24,917 nucleotides of DNA. Source: a virus. Lineage: Duplodnaviria; Caudoviricetes. Position 1 is the first letter of the stretch. Each line of letters starts with the position of its first letter. The notes beneath the pieces are model-generated. The model made no database searches and was not told the origin of the DNA. It saw only the letters and a list, made by a program, of their open reading frames with translations. Shown in pieces: positions 448 through 13,534 of this stretch. A program made the translations under genes and the position numbers. The stretch is from the IMG/VR virus record IMGVR_UViG_3300014656_000129, positions 1 to 24,917 of that record, one strand, 5' to 3'.

Positions 448-689
448 GCAATGAACGGGAGCTATTGGCGATCCGTGACGAGGTGCTGAACTATACCCCA
501 GAGCAAATCAAGGTGCTCATCTGTGATGACGGTTTTGACACGCTTGTGTGGCTCGTGGACGACAACGCTGATGTCTATTTTAGCCTGTCGCTATTCGGGG
601 TGAAGAGGTTCCCCAGGCCATATCCAGAGATAAAGCTATTGGTCCGGGCAGCTATCGACGTGCTGAACGCTCAGAGGTTGACCAAGTGA
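444..689 (+). CDS. hypothetical phage protein
   Basis: 81-aa ORF with ATGA/GTGA overlaps to both neighbours and GAGGTG upstream. Confidence 0.7.
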   Translation: MSNERELLAIRDEVLNYTPEQIKVLICDDGFDTLVWLVDDNADVYFSLSLFGVKRFPRPYPEIKLLVRAAIDVLNAQRLTK

Positions 690-1042
690 GGATCTGGACC
701 GCCCAATTCGGCTACGACGGCCAGGACCGCGTGGACATCACCAGGGGGTCCGCTGCGGGCGTCAGGGCCTTCGCGCCCAGTTGGAAGCTCGTCAGCGGGG
801 TCAAGGACGGCTCGCTGTCCTGGGGGCGATACACGGAGCTATACCTGGAGGAGATGAGGGTGTCCTGGATTGACCAGCGCAAGTGGTGGGCACGGCTGCT
901 CCGGATGCCCTCGGTGACGCTGGTCTGTTATTGCAAGTTCACCCCCGAGCACCAGTGCCACCGCTTTCTGCTCGCGGACATCCTCGTCCAGATCCAGCAG
1001 CGGTACGGGGTGCCCGTCGAGCGTATGGGAGAACGGCCGTGA
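686..1042 (+). CDS. DUF488-family protein
   Basis: Motifs FAPSWKLV..K.G..SW..Y...Y..EM and VTLVCYC.....CHR.LLA match the DUF488 pattern. GTG start with GAGG upstream. Confidence 0.75.
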   Translation: MRIWTAQFGYDGQDRVDITRGSAAGVRAFAPSWKLVSGVKDGSLSWGRYTELYLEEMRVSWIDQRKWWARLLRMPSVTLVCYCKFTPEHQCHRFLLADILVQIQQRYGVPVERMGERP

Positions 1043-8439: not shown

Positions 8440-10311
8440 ATGGACAAGCCGACTGACTGGACGACCAAGGACCTGGAGCGGTACGAACTGGCGGTAGAGA
8501 ACGCCCTGCTACTGGCCGAGCGTACAGACTCCATCGTCAACGAGCTGACCGGGCTCGGGACGACGGCGGACAAGGGGCGTGCTGGGCGTCCTGACACGAC
8601 CCAGGACTGGATGGACCCGGACGAACTGGAGGCCTTGTACGAGCACAACGGCATGGCTCGTCGGCTCATCGACATCATCCCCGACGAGTGCATCAGACGC
8701 GGGTGGAAGATTACGGACCCGGGCGGTGACTCGGACCTGTTCAACCATGAGGAACGGCGTCTGGGCCTGGTCAAGAAGGTGGCAGACGGGATGCGCTGGG
8801 GTCGCCTGTACGGCGGTGCCGTCATCCTGATGGTCGTGGAGGACGGGGAGGACGACTGGTCCAAGCCCATGCGGCTGGAGAAGGTCAAGCGGCTCCAGAA
8901 CCTCGTGGTATTCGATTACAACGAGTGCTCCGTCATCAACTACGAGAGCAACATCCACAACCCCAATTACCGCGCTGCGAGCATGTGGCAGTTGACGCCC
9001 ACTGAGGGGTACTGGAACGACACGGGTGGGGCTGATTGGGAGGCTGACCAGAAGCGGCGTCAGGAGGAGACCATCAGTGCTGGCTGGGGCGGGAAGTTGT
9101 CCAACGTCCACCACTCGCGCGTACTGTACTTCCCCGGTGGGCTGCTACCACCGTCCCGTAGGTTCGAGCGTGGGGGCTTCGACCTCCCGATCATGGAGTA
9201 CATATTCGAAGCGGTGCGGGACCTCACCAGCGTGGTCCAGGGGGCGTCCACGGTCGCCCAGGAGCTACGCCGTACTATCCTCAAGATCGACGGGTTCGGG
9301 GCCAGCCAGGTGGGCGACCAGTCGGACCTCGTGCGCTCTCGTATCCGTGCGATTCAGATGGGCATGAGCGTGCTGAATTGGGCCGTCGTCGGGGACGGGG
9401 ACGAGATCGAGCAGCAGACGGCAGACGTCAGAGGTTTCAATGACCTGTCCGACCTCATGTGGCAGATGCTTGCTGGCGTGACGGGGATGTCCATCACCAG
9501 GTTGCGCGGCGATGCTCCAGGCGGGCTCTCGACGGACGACAAGAGCGGTCGCGCCAACTGGACCGACGTCATCGCAGCTATCCAACAGCACTACCTCCTG
9601 GACATCCTGCTGCGCCTGTACTCGGTGATGTACGCCGCGGACGAGGGACCAACCAAGGGCAAGATGCCTGAGTGGTGGGATATCGAGTTTTTGCCCCTGG
9701 CCGAGCCTACGACCGCCGAGACTGCCGCCGAGCGCAAGGTGCGGGCTGAGACCGACGCGATCTATATCCAGGCTGGCGTGCTGTCCGCCGAGCAGGTAGC
9801 CAGCTCCAGGTTCGGTGAGAACGGGTATCAGGACGATATTCAACCCATCGACCATGACGATTTCAACGGCCCCAACCAGATCGTCATGGCCCAGGAACAG
9901 GAGCGGGCTGACGCGAAGTACACCAGCAGCGTGTACGCCGTGCCCGTGGCCGCGAGGGGTCGGGCTCAGTTCGTGCTGGCCTCCCTCAAGAGTGGCAAGC
10001 TCGCTCCCGAGGGGTTGTCTGCTGACGACCAGGCCGCAGCCGAGCACCTGGTCGCCGCGCCGTACCTGACGAGGGAGTACGTGCTGGGGCTGAATATCTG
10101 GTTCGAGGACAACCCATCGTTTCCCCAGACCGTCAGTGCGTGGGAGGTCAAGCCCGATGTGGTCGCCTTCTACGCTCGCGGTGGACAGGCGATGGCCGCT
10201 CGCTCCAAGAGTGTCGCCCAGGCCCAGGCGTTCACCATTCCACCGGACAGCGACGTTACCCCGGACAACGAGGCTCTGGCTGGCGAAGAAGACGGACCAG
10301 CTGGAGGGTAG
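8440..10311 (+). CDS. portal protein (DUF1073-type) with a C-terminal extension
   Basis: Follows terL. Motifs LEALY..NGMARRLIDIIPDECIRRGW, WGRLYGGAVI, VHHSRVLYF, GMSITRL.G..PGGL and IEF.PL.EPT..E.AE. RBS GAGGAG. Confidence 0.9.
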   Translation: MDKPTDWTTKDLERYELAVENALLLAERTDSIVNELTGLGTTADKGRAGRPDTTQDWMDPDELEALYEHNGMARRLIDIIPDECIRRGWKITDPGGDSDLFNHEERRLGLVKKVADGMRWGRLYGGAVILMVVEDGEDDWSKPMRLEKVKRLQNLVVFDYNECSVINYESNIHNPNYRAASMWQLTPTEGYWNDTGGADWEADQKRRQEETISAGWGGKLSNVHHSRVLYFPGGLLPPSRRFERGGFDLPIMEYIFEAVRDLTSVVQGASTVAQELRRTILKIDGFGASQVGDQSDLVRSRIRAIQMGMSVLNWAVVGDGDEIEQQTADVRGFNDLSDLMWQMLAGVTGMSITRLRGDAPGGLSTDDKSGRANWTDVIAAIQQHYLLDILLRLYSVMYAADEGPTKGKMPEWWDIEFLPLAEPTTAETAAERKVRAETDAIYIQAGVLSAEQVASSRFGENGYQDDIQPIDHDDFNGPNQIVMAQEQERADAKYTSSVYAVPVAARGRAQFVLASLKSGKLAPEGLSADDQAAAEHLVAAPYLTREYVLGLNIWFEDNPSFPQTVSAWEVKPDVVAFYARGGQAMAARSKSVAQAQAFTIPPDSDVTPDNEALAGEEDGPAGG

Positions 10312-10314
10312 CCA

Positions 10315-11202
10315 TTGCCCGCCCCACTGCCCAAAACAGCGTTCGGGCTGGTCTACCCAGCAGCTATCGAGGCTCGGTACTGGAGGATGCTCCGTGCTCA
10401 CGTCCTGGAGGTCCAGAGACTTTACCTGGAGGCACTGGAACGCGGGCTCAAGGGGGTAGGTGGATCAATCGACGCACGAGCTGAGAGGGGCGATTCAGCG
10501 ACCTCGGACGCCAGCCAGCTGCTGCGGGTAATGGAGGAGGTCCAGATACCCGCGATGAGCCCGGCAGAGCTGATGGCGATCTCGTCCAGCGTGGACCGTC
10601 ATGTGGCTGGGGAGCTGATGCGGACGGTCGGACGCTCGCTGGAGATGGCTCCGTGGAGAGCTAACCAGGTGGGCATGTACCAGGGCTGGGCTGGGGCCAA
10701 CGCCTCGCTCGTCACGAACATGGACCTGGACATGACCAACGGTATCCGGGACCGGGTGATGACGGCTGTCCACGAGGGCAAGAGCACGCGGCAGCTGGCC
10801 AAGGAGATCCAGGTCCAGACCAAGGTGTCGTCGTCCCGTGCCAGGCTCATCGCTCGCGACCAGGTGGGCAAGATGACGGGGGCTGTCCAAGAGGTCCGCC
10901 AGCGTAGCCTGGGTATCACTGAGTACATCTGGCGGTCGTCTATTGACGATAGGACGAGGGACGGTACGACGGGTCCAGCTGACCATGTGAGCCTGAACGG
11001 CACGACGCAAAAGTGGTCTGACCCGCCGTTCGACGGCAACGAGAACGTCCACCCCGGCTGGGCCATCAACTGCCGGTGCACAGCCGAGTCCATCATCCCA
11101 TCCATCGAGGAGGCCGCTGCGATGGGTGGGGCGACTGAACCCCCGACCATCGGGCCTGACATGGCGTACCAGTGGCAGAAGCGATTTGACCCAGCAGCCT
11201 GA
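10315..11202 (+). CDS. minor head/head morphogenesis protein (Mu gpF / SPP1 gp7 family)
   Basis: RARLIARDQVGK, ITEYIWRSS.DDRTRD, H..LNG...W.DPP and HPG.AINCRC motifs. Follows the portal gene. Confidence 0.92.
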   Translation: MPAPLPKTAFGLVYPAAIEARYWRMLRAHVLEVQRLYLEALERGLKGVGGSIDARAERGDSATSDASQLLRVMEEVQIPAMSPAELMAISSSVDRHVAGELMRTVGRSLEMAPWRANQVGMYQGWAGANASLVTNMDLDMTNGIRDRVMTAVHEGKSTRQLAKEIQVQTKVSSSRARLIARDQVGKMTGAVQEVRQRSLGITEYIWRSSIDDRTRDGTTGPADHVSLNGTTQKWSDPPFDGNENVHPGWAINCRCTAESIIPSIEEAAAMGGATEPPTIGPDMAYQWQKRFDPAA

Positions 11203-11229
11203 CGCCCGTCGCAGTAATGGTCCACCCGC

Positions 11230-11265
11230 AAAAAAGCCCCGACTCCAGGCGGCAGAGCCGAGGCT
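11230..11265 (-). terminator. Rho-independent terminator for the minus-strand cassette
   Basis: Minus strand reads GCCTCGGCTC-(9 nt)-GAGTCGGGGC followed by TTTTTT. The G-U pairs work only on the minus strand, and it lies just 3' of the tRNA. Confidence 0.85.
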
Positions 11266-11271
11266 AGTTTT

Positions 11272-11346
11272 TGGTTGCGCGGGCAGGGTTCGAACCTGCG
11301 ACCTTCGGCTTATGAGGCCGACGAGCTACCACTGCTCCACCGCACG
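11272..11346 (-). tRNA. tRNA-Met(CAT), initiator (fMet)-type, with encoded CCA and atypical C31:G39 and U3:G70 pairs
   Basis: 75-nt cloverleaf CGTGCGG TG GAGC AGTGGTA GCTC G TCGGC CTCATAA GCCGA AGGTC GCAGG TTCGAAC CCTGC CCGCGCA ACCA. The C1xA72 mismatch and A11:U24 pair are initiator hallmarks. Confidence 0.95.
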
Positions 11347-11361
11347 TCCAGCTCTGGAACC

Positions 11362-11622
11362 CTACCTGTCAAACTCCCGCAGCGTCAACTTCGCTGGAAT
11401 CACCATGTCGTTGGCGGTGACCACCTTCATCATTTCCAGGAGCGCACGACGCTTGCTGGAGTAGACCGCTGGCACCCCGTTGATTTCGACGTGGGTAGGG
11501 CGCATATACCTCCCCGGGGTCGAGGTCGGAGTGACGGACACGACCGCCCATCGGTACTTGGTGGACCCGTTCATGATCTCAGCGATACCGTAGGTCACGC
11601 TCTTGTCTTCGGCATTCAGCAT
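11362..11622 (-). CDS. 86-aa hypothetical protein
   Basis: ATG at 11622 with a GGAGGAA RBS, 1 nt after the stop of the Phd-like gene. Ends 15 nt before the tRNA. Confidence 0.75.
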   Translation of the reverse strand: MLNAEDKSVTYGIAEIMNGSTKYRWAVVSVTPTSTPGRYMRPTHVEINGVPAVYSSKRRALLEMMKVVTANDMVIPAKLTLREFDR

Positions 11623-11623
11623 G

Positions 11624-11914
11624 TTAGTCGTTCCTCCCGTGCACCTCGGCTGCAATTCGCACAGTCTCCTTCAGGAATTTCACGTCATCTGGCCAAGGTG
11701 GTCGCTTGTTACCGCTGGCCATGGCGAGGGCCATTTCTATCAACTCGGGAGCCTTGTGGAGACCCCGCAGGAGGTCCACCGTCAGCCTTCCAGGCATGAG
11801 TACCGCGATGCGTTCTCCGTACCGTGTGATGGTGATCGGAGCGCCTGTTTCGTTGGCCGCTTCGACTAGCTTTTTGAAATCCCGCCTCGCCCGTTCGATG
11901 CCATATCTTCTCAC
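11624..11914 (-). CDS. Phd/YefM-family antitoxin-like DNA-binding protein
   Basis: GTG at 11914 with GGAGG 9 nt upstream. The N-terminus MRRYGIERARRDFKKLVEAANETGAPITITRYGERIAVLMP fits the Phd/YefM pattern (..I.EAR..F..L...A....P..ITR.G...AVL.P). Confidence 0.8.
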   Translation of the reverse strand: MRRYGIERARRDFKKLVEAANETGAPITITRYGERIAVLMPGRLTVDLLRGLHKAPELIEMALAMASGNKRPPWPDDVKFLKETVRIAAEVHGRND

Positions 11915-11934
11915 GTGGATGCGCCTCCACGGGC

Positions 11935-11964
11935 AGCGTATCACAGGTCGGATCGTCTTGTGAG
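11935..11964 (-). promoter_or_regulatory. candidate promoter with an overlapping palindromic operator for the Phd-like cassette
   Basis: Minus strand CTCACA-N18-TACGCT with an extended -10 TG. An imperfect palindrome TCACA-N13-TGTGA spans 11941-11963. Confidence 0.45.
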
Positions 11965-12040
11965 GTTTCGTAGATCCAACATTGACGGTCATGCCTGACG
12001 GCAGGTTCCCTAAAGAATACGACGACAACCGAGAGGCCAG

Positions 12041-13534
12041 ATGCCCTATCCGAACCAGCACGCTGTCCGCTACCGAGCCCCAGGGGCGTTCCAGGCGGGC
12101 TCGTACATGACTCTGACCGAGAACATGGCTCCTGGTGTGTCCATGATCGTCGGCAAGCTGAAGGACGGTGGAGCAAGCGCAACCCAGGCTGTGAGGTTCT
12201 CCACGGACAAGTGGACCATCGCCCAGGTCCGCGAGTGGGTGGCCAAGCACGAGGAGACCGAGGGCAAGCCCATCCTGGTGGAGCCTGCTTCCGACGACGG
12301 CCAGGACGACCAACGGGGCGACCAACTGCTGGAGGAGGAGCGGTTCGACCGCGGCACTCTGAGCAAGGTCGAGCGCACCCGCGAGGGGTTTATCAAGGCA
12401 CAGGCGCGATGGGCCAAGGCAGGCATCCTGCGGTACCCCAACGCTGATGGCAGCATCCGTCGTGAGCTGGTGGAGCCTGGGCTACTCGCTGACCAGGCAT
12501 CGCTGGATAGCTACACGAACAAGCCCGTTACGCTGGGTCACCCGCAAGAAGGTGGACGCCTCATACTACTCACCCCGGAGAACGTCCGACGCTGGACCAG
12601 GGGCTCTGTGGGCGACGACGTGACGTTCGACGGGCAGTATCAGTGCGGGAAGCTGACCATCACGGACGGCGAGACCATCCGGGCCATTGAGTCTGGTGTC
12701 CGCGAGCTGTCCCCCGGATACAAGGTCTCCATCGACCCGACCCCTGGAACCCATCCGATTTTCGGTCCCTACGACGCCCGCCAGGTGAGGCGCGAGGGCA
12801 ACCACATAGCGATAACCCCGGCCGCACGCGGCGGTTCGGATTTACAACTGAGAGCCGATTCAAGATTCGCTCTCGACACCACTGGAGGCATCATGGATCC
12901 CGAGCTGATGAAGGCTCTCATTGCCCTGGGGGTTACCTCGGAACGGCTGGTGAAGCACGCGGACAAGCTGGAGCAATTCCAGCTGCGTGGTGACGCAGCC
13001 GACGAGGGTCCCTGGAAAGCCAAGTACGACAAGATGAAGGAGGAGTTCGACGCCCTCAAGGCCGACATGGACAAGCAGAAAGGCGAGTTCGACGCGCTTC
13101 AGGCGAAGTGCGATGCCTTCGAGCTGAAGGCCAAGGACGATCCCGAGGCGGACAAGGACAAGGGCGACAAGCGGGGTGACTCGTTGGAAGCCCGCATCCA
13201 GGCACACAAGGACTGGAACCTTGCCCGCGAGCTGGCCAAGAAGCACGGCATCAAGGACACCCGTGCGGACTCCATGGACGTGAGCGAGTTGAAGCGGGAG
13301 ATCGTCAAGGCCGTCAAGACGGACCTCCCCGCCGACGCAACGCCCGAGTACGTCAATGCGTACTACGATTTCCTCAGAACCAACGGCTCCTCGCGCGCCG
13401 ATGAGCGTGAGGTTCCCGTGCTGGTCCCCCCGGCCAAGCGCCGCAACAAGGGTTCCGATGACACCCGCCACGACGCTGGTGACATCTGGGGCCAGTCCAT
13501 CGACGATGCCTTTGCCAAGGCCGGAGGTGAATGA
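12041..13534 (+). CDS. DUF2213-type head maturation protease/scaffold protein
   Basis: RT.EGF...A..AKAGI..Y...DG..RRE, SLDSY..KPVTLGHP, I.AIESG.RELSPGY and Q.....NHIAI...ARGG....LRAD motifs, followed by a coiled-coil acidic/Lys-rich scaffold region. Confidence 0.9.
   Translation: MPYPNQHAVRYRAPGAFQAGSYMTLTENMAPGVSMIVGKLKDGGASATQAVRFSTDKWTIAQVREWVAKHEETEGKPILVEPASDDGQDDQRGDQLLEEERFDRGTLSKVERTREGFIKAQARWAKAGILRYPNADGSIRRELVEPGLLADQASLDSYTNKPVTLGHPQEGGRLILLTPENVRRWTRGSVGDDVTFDGQYQCGKLTITDGETIRAIESGVRELSPGYKVSIDPTPGTHPIFGPYDARQVRREGNHIAITPAARGGSDLQLRADSRFALDTTGGIMDPELMKALIALGVTSERLVKHADKLEQFQLRGDAADEGPWKAKYDKMKEEFDALKADMDKQKGEFDALQAKCDAFELKAKDDPEADKDKGDKRGDSLEARIQAHKDWNLARELAKKHGIKDTRADSMDVSELKREIVKAVKTDLPADATPEYVNAYYDFLRTNGSSRADEREVPVLVPPAKRRNKGSDDTRHDAGDIWGQSIDDAFAKAGGE

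Follow-up and report, generated by a model that had tools for sequence, protein, structure and literature searches.

A compact minus-strand cassette in the head operon of a groundwater phage carries an initiator-type tRNA in which the third pair of the anticodon stem is flipped from the canonical G31:C39 to C31:G39. This tRNA is preceded by a Phd/YefM-domain gene and an 86-aa gene, and a sister phage carries other letters in its place. The flip recurs in viruses and is nearly absent among cellular housekeeping copies. We favor, tentatively, the reading of the cassette as a moron-like unit, probably autorepressed by its Phd protein, with an exchangeable initiator-type C31:G39 tRNA that likely escapes VapC-type nucleases.

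Genomic setting and organization of the cassette

The window analysed here is an entire contig of 24,917 nt, recorded as a linear virus of about 41% completeness, and in this fragment no integrase and no host or lifestyle clues were found. The sequence comes throughout from groundwater metagenomes (eight runs from five studies among the runs listed, with no RNA run among them, four of the eight being a possible source of the virus record itself). According to profile searches, the plus strand encodes a myovirus terminase-head-tail module. The cassette had been placed between a MuF-like and a protease gene by an earlier note made from the sequence alone, and both flanks were indeed identified by profile (PF04233 and DUF2213). 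Its G+C content is slightly below that of the surroundings (0.58 against 0.63-0.64). The features are as follows.

10315-11202, plus strand: MuF-like head morphogenesis gene (PF04233), flank, profile match
11230-11265, minus strand: intrinsic-terminator-like hairpin and T run (stem 11265-11235, five T)
11266-11360, no strand assigned: exchangeable slot, from the stop codon of the 86-aa gene to the terminator (comparison with X7)
11272-11346, minus strand: initiator-type tRNA-Met(CAU) (ARAGORN; Rfam 64.8 bits)
11362-11622, minus strand: 86-aa gene, three-cluster family without known domain (ORF call, homologues)
11624-11914, minus strand: Phd/YefM-domain gene, 96 aa, GTG start (ORF call, PF02604 and TIGR01552)
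11633-11637, minus strand: Shine-Dalgarno GGAGG of the 86-aa gene, within the 3' end of the Phd gene (sequence)
11924-11928, minus strand: Shine-Dalgarno GGAGG of the Phd gene, 9 nt upstream of the GTG (sequence)
11935-11964, minus strand: weak candidate for a promoter/operator (visual match to 7 of 12 consensus bases)
12041-13534, plus strand: DUF2213 head maturation protease gene, flank, profile match

The terminator of the earlier note is borne out by the minus-strand hairpin and its five T: the stem has a z of -2.8, with 2 of 200 shuffles equally good, and it pairs well solely on the minus strand because 4 of its 13 pairs are G.U. The promoter and palindrome of that note are not supported, as no sigma-70-like site was detected and the five-base inverted repeats are at chance level (3, against 2.55 in shuffles). 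A 174-aa plus-strand ORF running across the cassette was rejected, since its third-position G+C is 0.50, below the 0.66-0.87 of the called genes. Elsewhere in the window, a DUF488-N3a gene (PF22751, 47.5 bits; 686-1042, plus strand) lies among the small genes left of the terminase, the portal gene (8440-10311) has about 140 residues outside its family match, and the protease has about 100 additional N-terminal residues ahead of DUF2213.

The Phd/YefM-domain gene and the 86-aa gene

The Phd/YefM-like assignment of the 96-aa protein withstood the profile check in both Pfam and NCBIfam, where the curated cut-offs were exceeded for PF02604 (35.8 bits, cut-off 29.8) and TIGR01552 (35.9, cut-off 20.8), the match being confined to the N-terminal residues 1-41. 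In agreement, 29 of 30 matches of the protein in the Atlas fall in PF02604 clusters. The C-terminal tail of 55 aa is unrelated to the family and, having 9 basic residues to 8 acidic ones, is not acidic. No close relatives were found beyond its own cluster in the protein collection, viral contigs, phages and plasmids. A longer start giving 122 aa (P0008) was rejected, since the GTG has a Shine-Dalgarno sequence and aligns to position 1 of the model. In Synechococcus phage S-CBS4 (L362:2132-2422), a minus-strand gene of 96 aa with the annotation “repressor” diverges from the DUF2213 protease gene and occupies the slot of the Phd gene, the two proteins having no sequence match.

The 86-aa gene lies 1 nt downstream of the Phd gene and has its own ribosome-binding site, as described earlier. 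A search among 1.84 billion representatives gave four matches, two of them full-length homologues (P0004, 55%; P0006, 38%) and the remaining two repeat proteins; because two distant full-length homologues exist, the ORF is very likely a real gene. The protein has no match in Pfam at E 0.1 or in PHROGs, no noteworthy hit in NCBIfam or PADLOC at E 1, no PDB sequence match at E 10, and no profile match to the known Phd partners VapC/PIN, RelE/YoeB and Doc/Fic. Its AlphaFold models are of low confidence (pLDDT 47.5 and 46.8) and place four strands before one helix. A complex predicted from the 86-aa protein and two copies of Phd scored 0.01, which gives no verdict and is not counted as evidence. 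Neither protein has relatives in viral contigs or phages, and a metagenome scan returned solely the window's own contig (L121).

An initiator-type tRNA with a flipped third pair

The tRNA-fMet reported earlier is confirmed by ARAGORN and Rfam; it begins 15 nt past the 86-aa gene and its CCA is encoded. The initiator marks present are the CAU anticodon, the unpaired C1xA72, G2:C71, A11:U24 and A73. In the acceptor stem, U3.G70 is found, not C3:G70, together with C5:G68. C3:G70 is a formylation element of initiator tRNA; the U3.G70 of the window tRNA is shared by 3 of 73 parsed C31:G39 variants and 5 of 64 canonical viral copies. The anticodon stem consists of G29:C41, G30:C40 and the flipped C31:G39, and the canonical three consecutive G:C pairs (29-31:39-41) are not found in it.

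The same flip of the third pair (“3rd CG”, GC/GC/cg) keeps E. coli alive after deletion of all four of its initiator genes, the middle G:C pair of the stem being the critical one (PMC5389676). This middle pair (G30:C40) is intact in the window tRNA. Since the engineered flip is viable and the critical pair is kept, the natural flip is predicted to be functional too, and the C31:G39 tRNA is predicted to start translation normally. The natural exceptions given in the same source are A29:U41 and G31.U39, not C31:G39.

The flip falls on a known nuclease site. An enteric VapC cuts tRNA-fMet between A38 and C39 (PMC4105405); with G in place of C39, therefore, the base on the 3' side of the cut is lost. 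The window tRNA thus differs from the canonical initiator at this site, the host copy being assumed canonical. VapC recognition depends on both sequence and stem-loop structure (PMC8522696, PMC7180214, PMC4705866). The earlier note had proposed a counter-defense acting in two ways: the altered base next to the VapC cut fits the replacement toxin target, and the antitoxin mimic found no direct support, as was also the case for toxicity of the 86-aa protein. No assay or paper was found in which C31:G39 blocks any VapC; literature on phage initiator tRNAs with C31:G39, or on phage tRNAs that adjoin a gene of the Phd type, was likewise not found, in a search outside of which most subscription journals lie.

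Distribution of pair 31:39 in viruses and cellular genomes

A 17-base pattern with C31:G39 occurs at 119 viral loci (about 130 estimated), of which 115 are ARAGORN tRNAs, and 95 different viral sequence contexts contain the flip. Among the 73 of these 95 that were parsed, G2:C71 is present in 68, C3:G70 in 67, A73 in 69 and an unpaired 1x72 in 43, with U24 fixed by the search pattern. When positions 31 and 39 were left free, the 120 viral loci sampled from an estimated total of about 1,700 matches contained 121 matches, 94 with G:C and 27 with other pairs, all 27 without C39. Restricting the count to called viral initiator-type tRNAs, 24 of 110, about a fifth, are altered at 31:39 and lack C39, and 86 are canonical, some of which may be host attachment sites. 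The bacterial comparison, 120 genomes of one phylum with the center genome excluded, gave a single non-C39 match against 124 canonical ones, the latter held by 78 genomes. The difference (24 of 110 against 1 of 125) has a Fisher p of 8e-8, to be read with the caveats that rows are not independent, that all patterns fixed G29 and G30, and that the viral and bacterial samples differ in host taxa. The other 31:39 states, in 92 distinct tRNAs, are U.G (33), A:U (27), G.U (17), U.U (13) and U:A (2), some of them poorly paired.

Among 185,579 species genomes, the C31:G39 pattern is found in about 170 stretches; 55 of the 120 fetched are tRNAs, many of them in tRNA arrays, and some adjoin phage genes (23 loci viewed). 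A canonical copy is also present in 36 of the 48 genomes with a C31:G39 tRNA (50 of the 55 loci). Therefore, the viral and genome counts, together with the coexisting canonical copies, indicate that the C31:G39 variant is accessory and virus-enriched. In several actinobacterial genomes (Actinoplanes and Winogradskya among those with a name), C31:G39 is located in accessory tRNA arrays (L246, L251, L263, L283, L288, L290 and L350), with canonical copies elsewhere.

Cultured phages also carry such tRNAs. In Rhizobium phage RHph_TM3_3_3 (L364:1347-1422), A29:U41, G30:C40 and C31:G39 are found in a tRNA ahead of late genes; the combination of A29:U41, an alphaproteobacterial feature, with C31:G39 suggests an independent origin. 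Vibrio phage phi-ST2 (L489:96-172) has a variant initiator-type tRNA with U31.G39. Bordetella phage PHB04 (L487:601-676) contains an unannotated tRNA-Met-like gene with a canonical anticodon stem and C11:G24.

An exchangeable slot within a unit that is not fixed

A sister phage contig from run X7, a different study (63,531 nt, depth 79), has 82 other letters at 11266-11360 and lacks the tRNA, and is identical to the window over the terminator and over 11361-12639, which includes both ORFs. By visual inspection, neither a T-loop nor a CCA end is present in the 30 replacement letters nearest the terminator. This single contig is the one in which the swap is known. In the MuF region, X7 differs from the window at 30 places and by an 18-nt gap, with nearly identical neighbors, and 21 of the 28 listed coding changes (window 10600-11265) are at third positions, so that the 3' part of the X7 MuF gene resembles a patch acquired by recombination, with its end at the tRNA slot. 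Run X6 is identical to the window across 10300-12281, runs X4 and X5 carry the tRNA in shorter pieces, and X1-X3 carry its 3' end.

The earlier note had suggested looking for synteny of the Phd gene, the 86-aa ORF and tRNA-fMet in other phages. No such conserved trio emerged: besides the absence of the tRNA in X7, none of 198 virus records with non-C39 tRNA patterns contains PF02604, which the same search detects in the window, and no match to the Phd or 86-aa protein was retrieved in 485 fetched loci. The 198 records exclude near-duplicate loci and two chance matches and include 50 that are at least 90% complete, and their zero stands without a base rate from random viruses. A PIN domain was similarly absent from 80 of 80 variant-tRNA virus records. 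By these comparisons, the three parts of the cassette do not form a fixed system.

Forty loci were chosen in which the variant tRNA stands alone or nearly so, and 150 of their 152 neighboring ORFs were scanned; 12 of these loci adjoin head, terminase or tail genes, and at L081 the variant tRNA directly follows a MuF gene. Thus, the variant tRNA moves into late operons on its own. Toxin-antitoxin pairs adjoin 2 of the 40 loci, with HicAB facing the tRNA at L066; at L045 (2059-3054), TacA (PF08681) and a GNAT toxin-like gene share the strand of a C31:G39 tRNA and lie 127 nt ahead of it. For GNAT toxins of the AtaT kind, the target is Met-tRNA-fMet.

Relatives were also sought through the flanks, where the portal search gave none and the MuF search one at 28%. 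Of five distant phages (27-30% protease identity), three have a gene ahead of the protease that stops 114, 54 or 29 nt short of it, annotated as head morphogenesis in phiEt88 only; in the other two the junction holds one small gene (B054) or several (S-CBS4).

Interpretation of the cassette

Phd domain dimers repress their own promoters, and an orientation opposite to the surrounding late operon is a typical trait of morons that are expressed in lysogens. In the moron-like reading, a promoter within 11915-12040 would drive phd, the 86-aa gene and the slot, the transcript ending at the hairpin, and a Phd domain dimer would repress this promoter. The tRNA would be excised from the transcript, charged and formylated, and, if active in the host and nuclease-resistant, would allow initiation to continue once tRNA-fMet is depleted by a toxin of the host or of a rival; the Phd and 86-aa proteins need not share a pathway. 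Given this orientation, the unit could equally well protect a lysogen or act as a counter-defense in lytic growth.

The Phd and 86-aa genes could instead constitute a new type II toxin-antitoxin pair serving addiction or lysogen defense, with the tRNA as passenger or self-shield, which we regard as possible but doubtful. The antitoxin-first order, the 1-nt gap, the sizes of 96 and 86 aa and the presence of both genes, together and identical, in X7 are those expected of such a pair, and Phd-type antitoxins swap partners widely (PMC10440598); the TacA-GNAT genes near a C31:G39 tRNA in an unrelated phage (L045) also point this way. Nevertheless, the 86-aa protein is without a match in the domain, defense and PDB sequence collections searched, its Atlas structure neighbors are viral proteins without names, its lone His is absent from the equivalent site in P0004 and P0006, and the Phd tail is not acidic. 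The predicted order of four strands and a helix (pLDDT 47 models) also differs from those that we take to be the orders of RelE, PIN and Doc. Self-protection by the tRNA is further disfavored by the lack of PIN domains in the 80 variant-tRNA records and by the tRNA-less X7. A plainer role, in which the tRNA is dosage cargo for late initiation, its flip tolerated under relaxed selection and Phd a mere regulator, would agree with the viability of an altered third pair in E. coli (PMC5389676), the many and partly ill-paired 31:39 states of the 92 distinct tRNAs, the 86 canonical copies among 110 and the dispensability of the tRNA in X7. Indeed, since E. coli tolerates an altered third pair, drift could yield an equal enrichment. 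We nonetheless consider this role unlikely, as the flip requires two compensating changes and yet recurs in 95 distinct viral contexts, is nearly absent among cellular housekeeping copies, and appears from RHph_TM3_3_3 to have arisen independently.

A coordinated double counter-defense, in which Phd acts as a decoy antitoxin against a host VapC and the toxin's target is replaced by the tRNA, would explain why one unit combines a gene of the Phd family with a tRNA changed where VapC cuts; orphan antitoxins are known phage counter-defenses (PMC11825919) and VapCs can defend against phage (PMC13273310). It is very unlikely in view of the absence of PF02604 from the 198 variant-tRNA records, the retention of Phd without the tRNA in X7, the match of the DNA-binding half alone to the family, and the neutralization of VapC toxins mostly by their cognate antitoxins alone (PMC7180214). 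The broader proposal that a rewritten 31:39 pair is a widespread phage answer to initiator-tRNA nucleases, here coupled to a Phd decoy as a two-layer anti-VapBC system, seems to us quite unlikely.

If the flip confers resistance, as the moron-like reading supposes, a recurring class of phage initiator tRNAs would be explained, fMet-cutting toxins would be a real pressure on phages, and a viable two-base change would be useful for probing VapC specificity. The cultured carriers RHph_TM3_3_3 (C31:G39) and phi-ST2 (U31.G39) permit direct testing, and the window and X7 form a natural pair with and without the tRNA. The Phd and 86-aa unit, for its part, may be an unknown toxin-antitoxin pair.

Comparison with known systems

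Like phage morons (PMC3594210), the cassette is a small unit within a morphogenesis operon and has its own terminator; the corresponding junction is short in three of five distant relatives and holds other small genes in two. It differs from them in a G+C content that is little lower, in its exchangeable tRNA slot and in a promoter that is only a weak candidate. With the type II antitoxins of the Phd/YefM family (Phd-Doc, YefM-YoeB, Phd-type VapB), the Phd protein shares the N-terminal DNA-binding domain and its gene the leading position in a tight two-gene arrangement. In contrast to these, the downstream gene matches no known toxin family and the C-terminal half is neutral and unrelated.

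The tRNA shares CAU, C1xA72, A11:U24, A73, G29:C41 and G30:C40 with bacterial tRNA-fMet and the engineered “3rd CG” mutant, and its third pair is flipped exactly as in that viable mutant (PMC5389676), from which it differs in being natural and virus-enriched and in carrying U3.G70 and C5:G68. Enterobacterial phages are described as generally avoiding tRNA-fMet (van den Berg 2023, PMC10264068), and a study of Sf14 tRNAs reportedly found no nuclease-evading role of this kind (PMC12482277). With the nuclease-evading phage tRNAs described to date (PMC10264068, PMC11555353), the window tRNA has in common an alteration at or next to the cut site; here, in contrast, the tRNA is an initiator and the alteration is in the anticodon stem, at 31:39, rather than in the loop.
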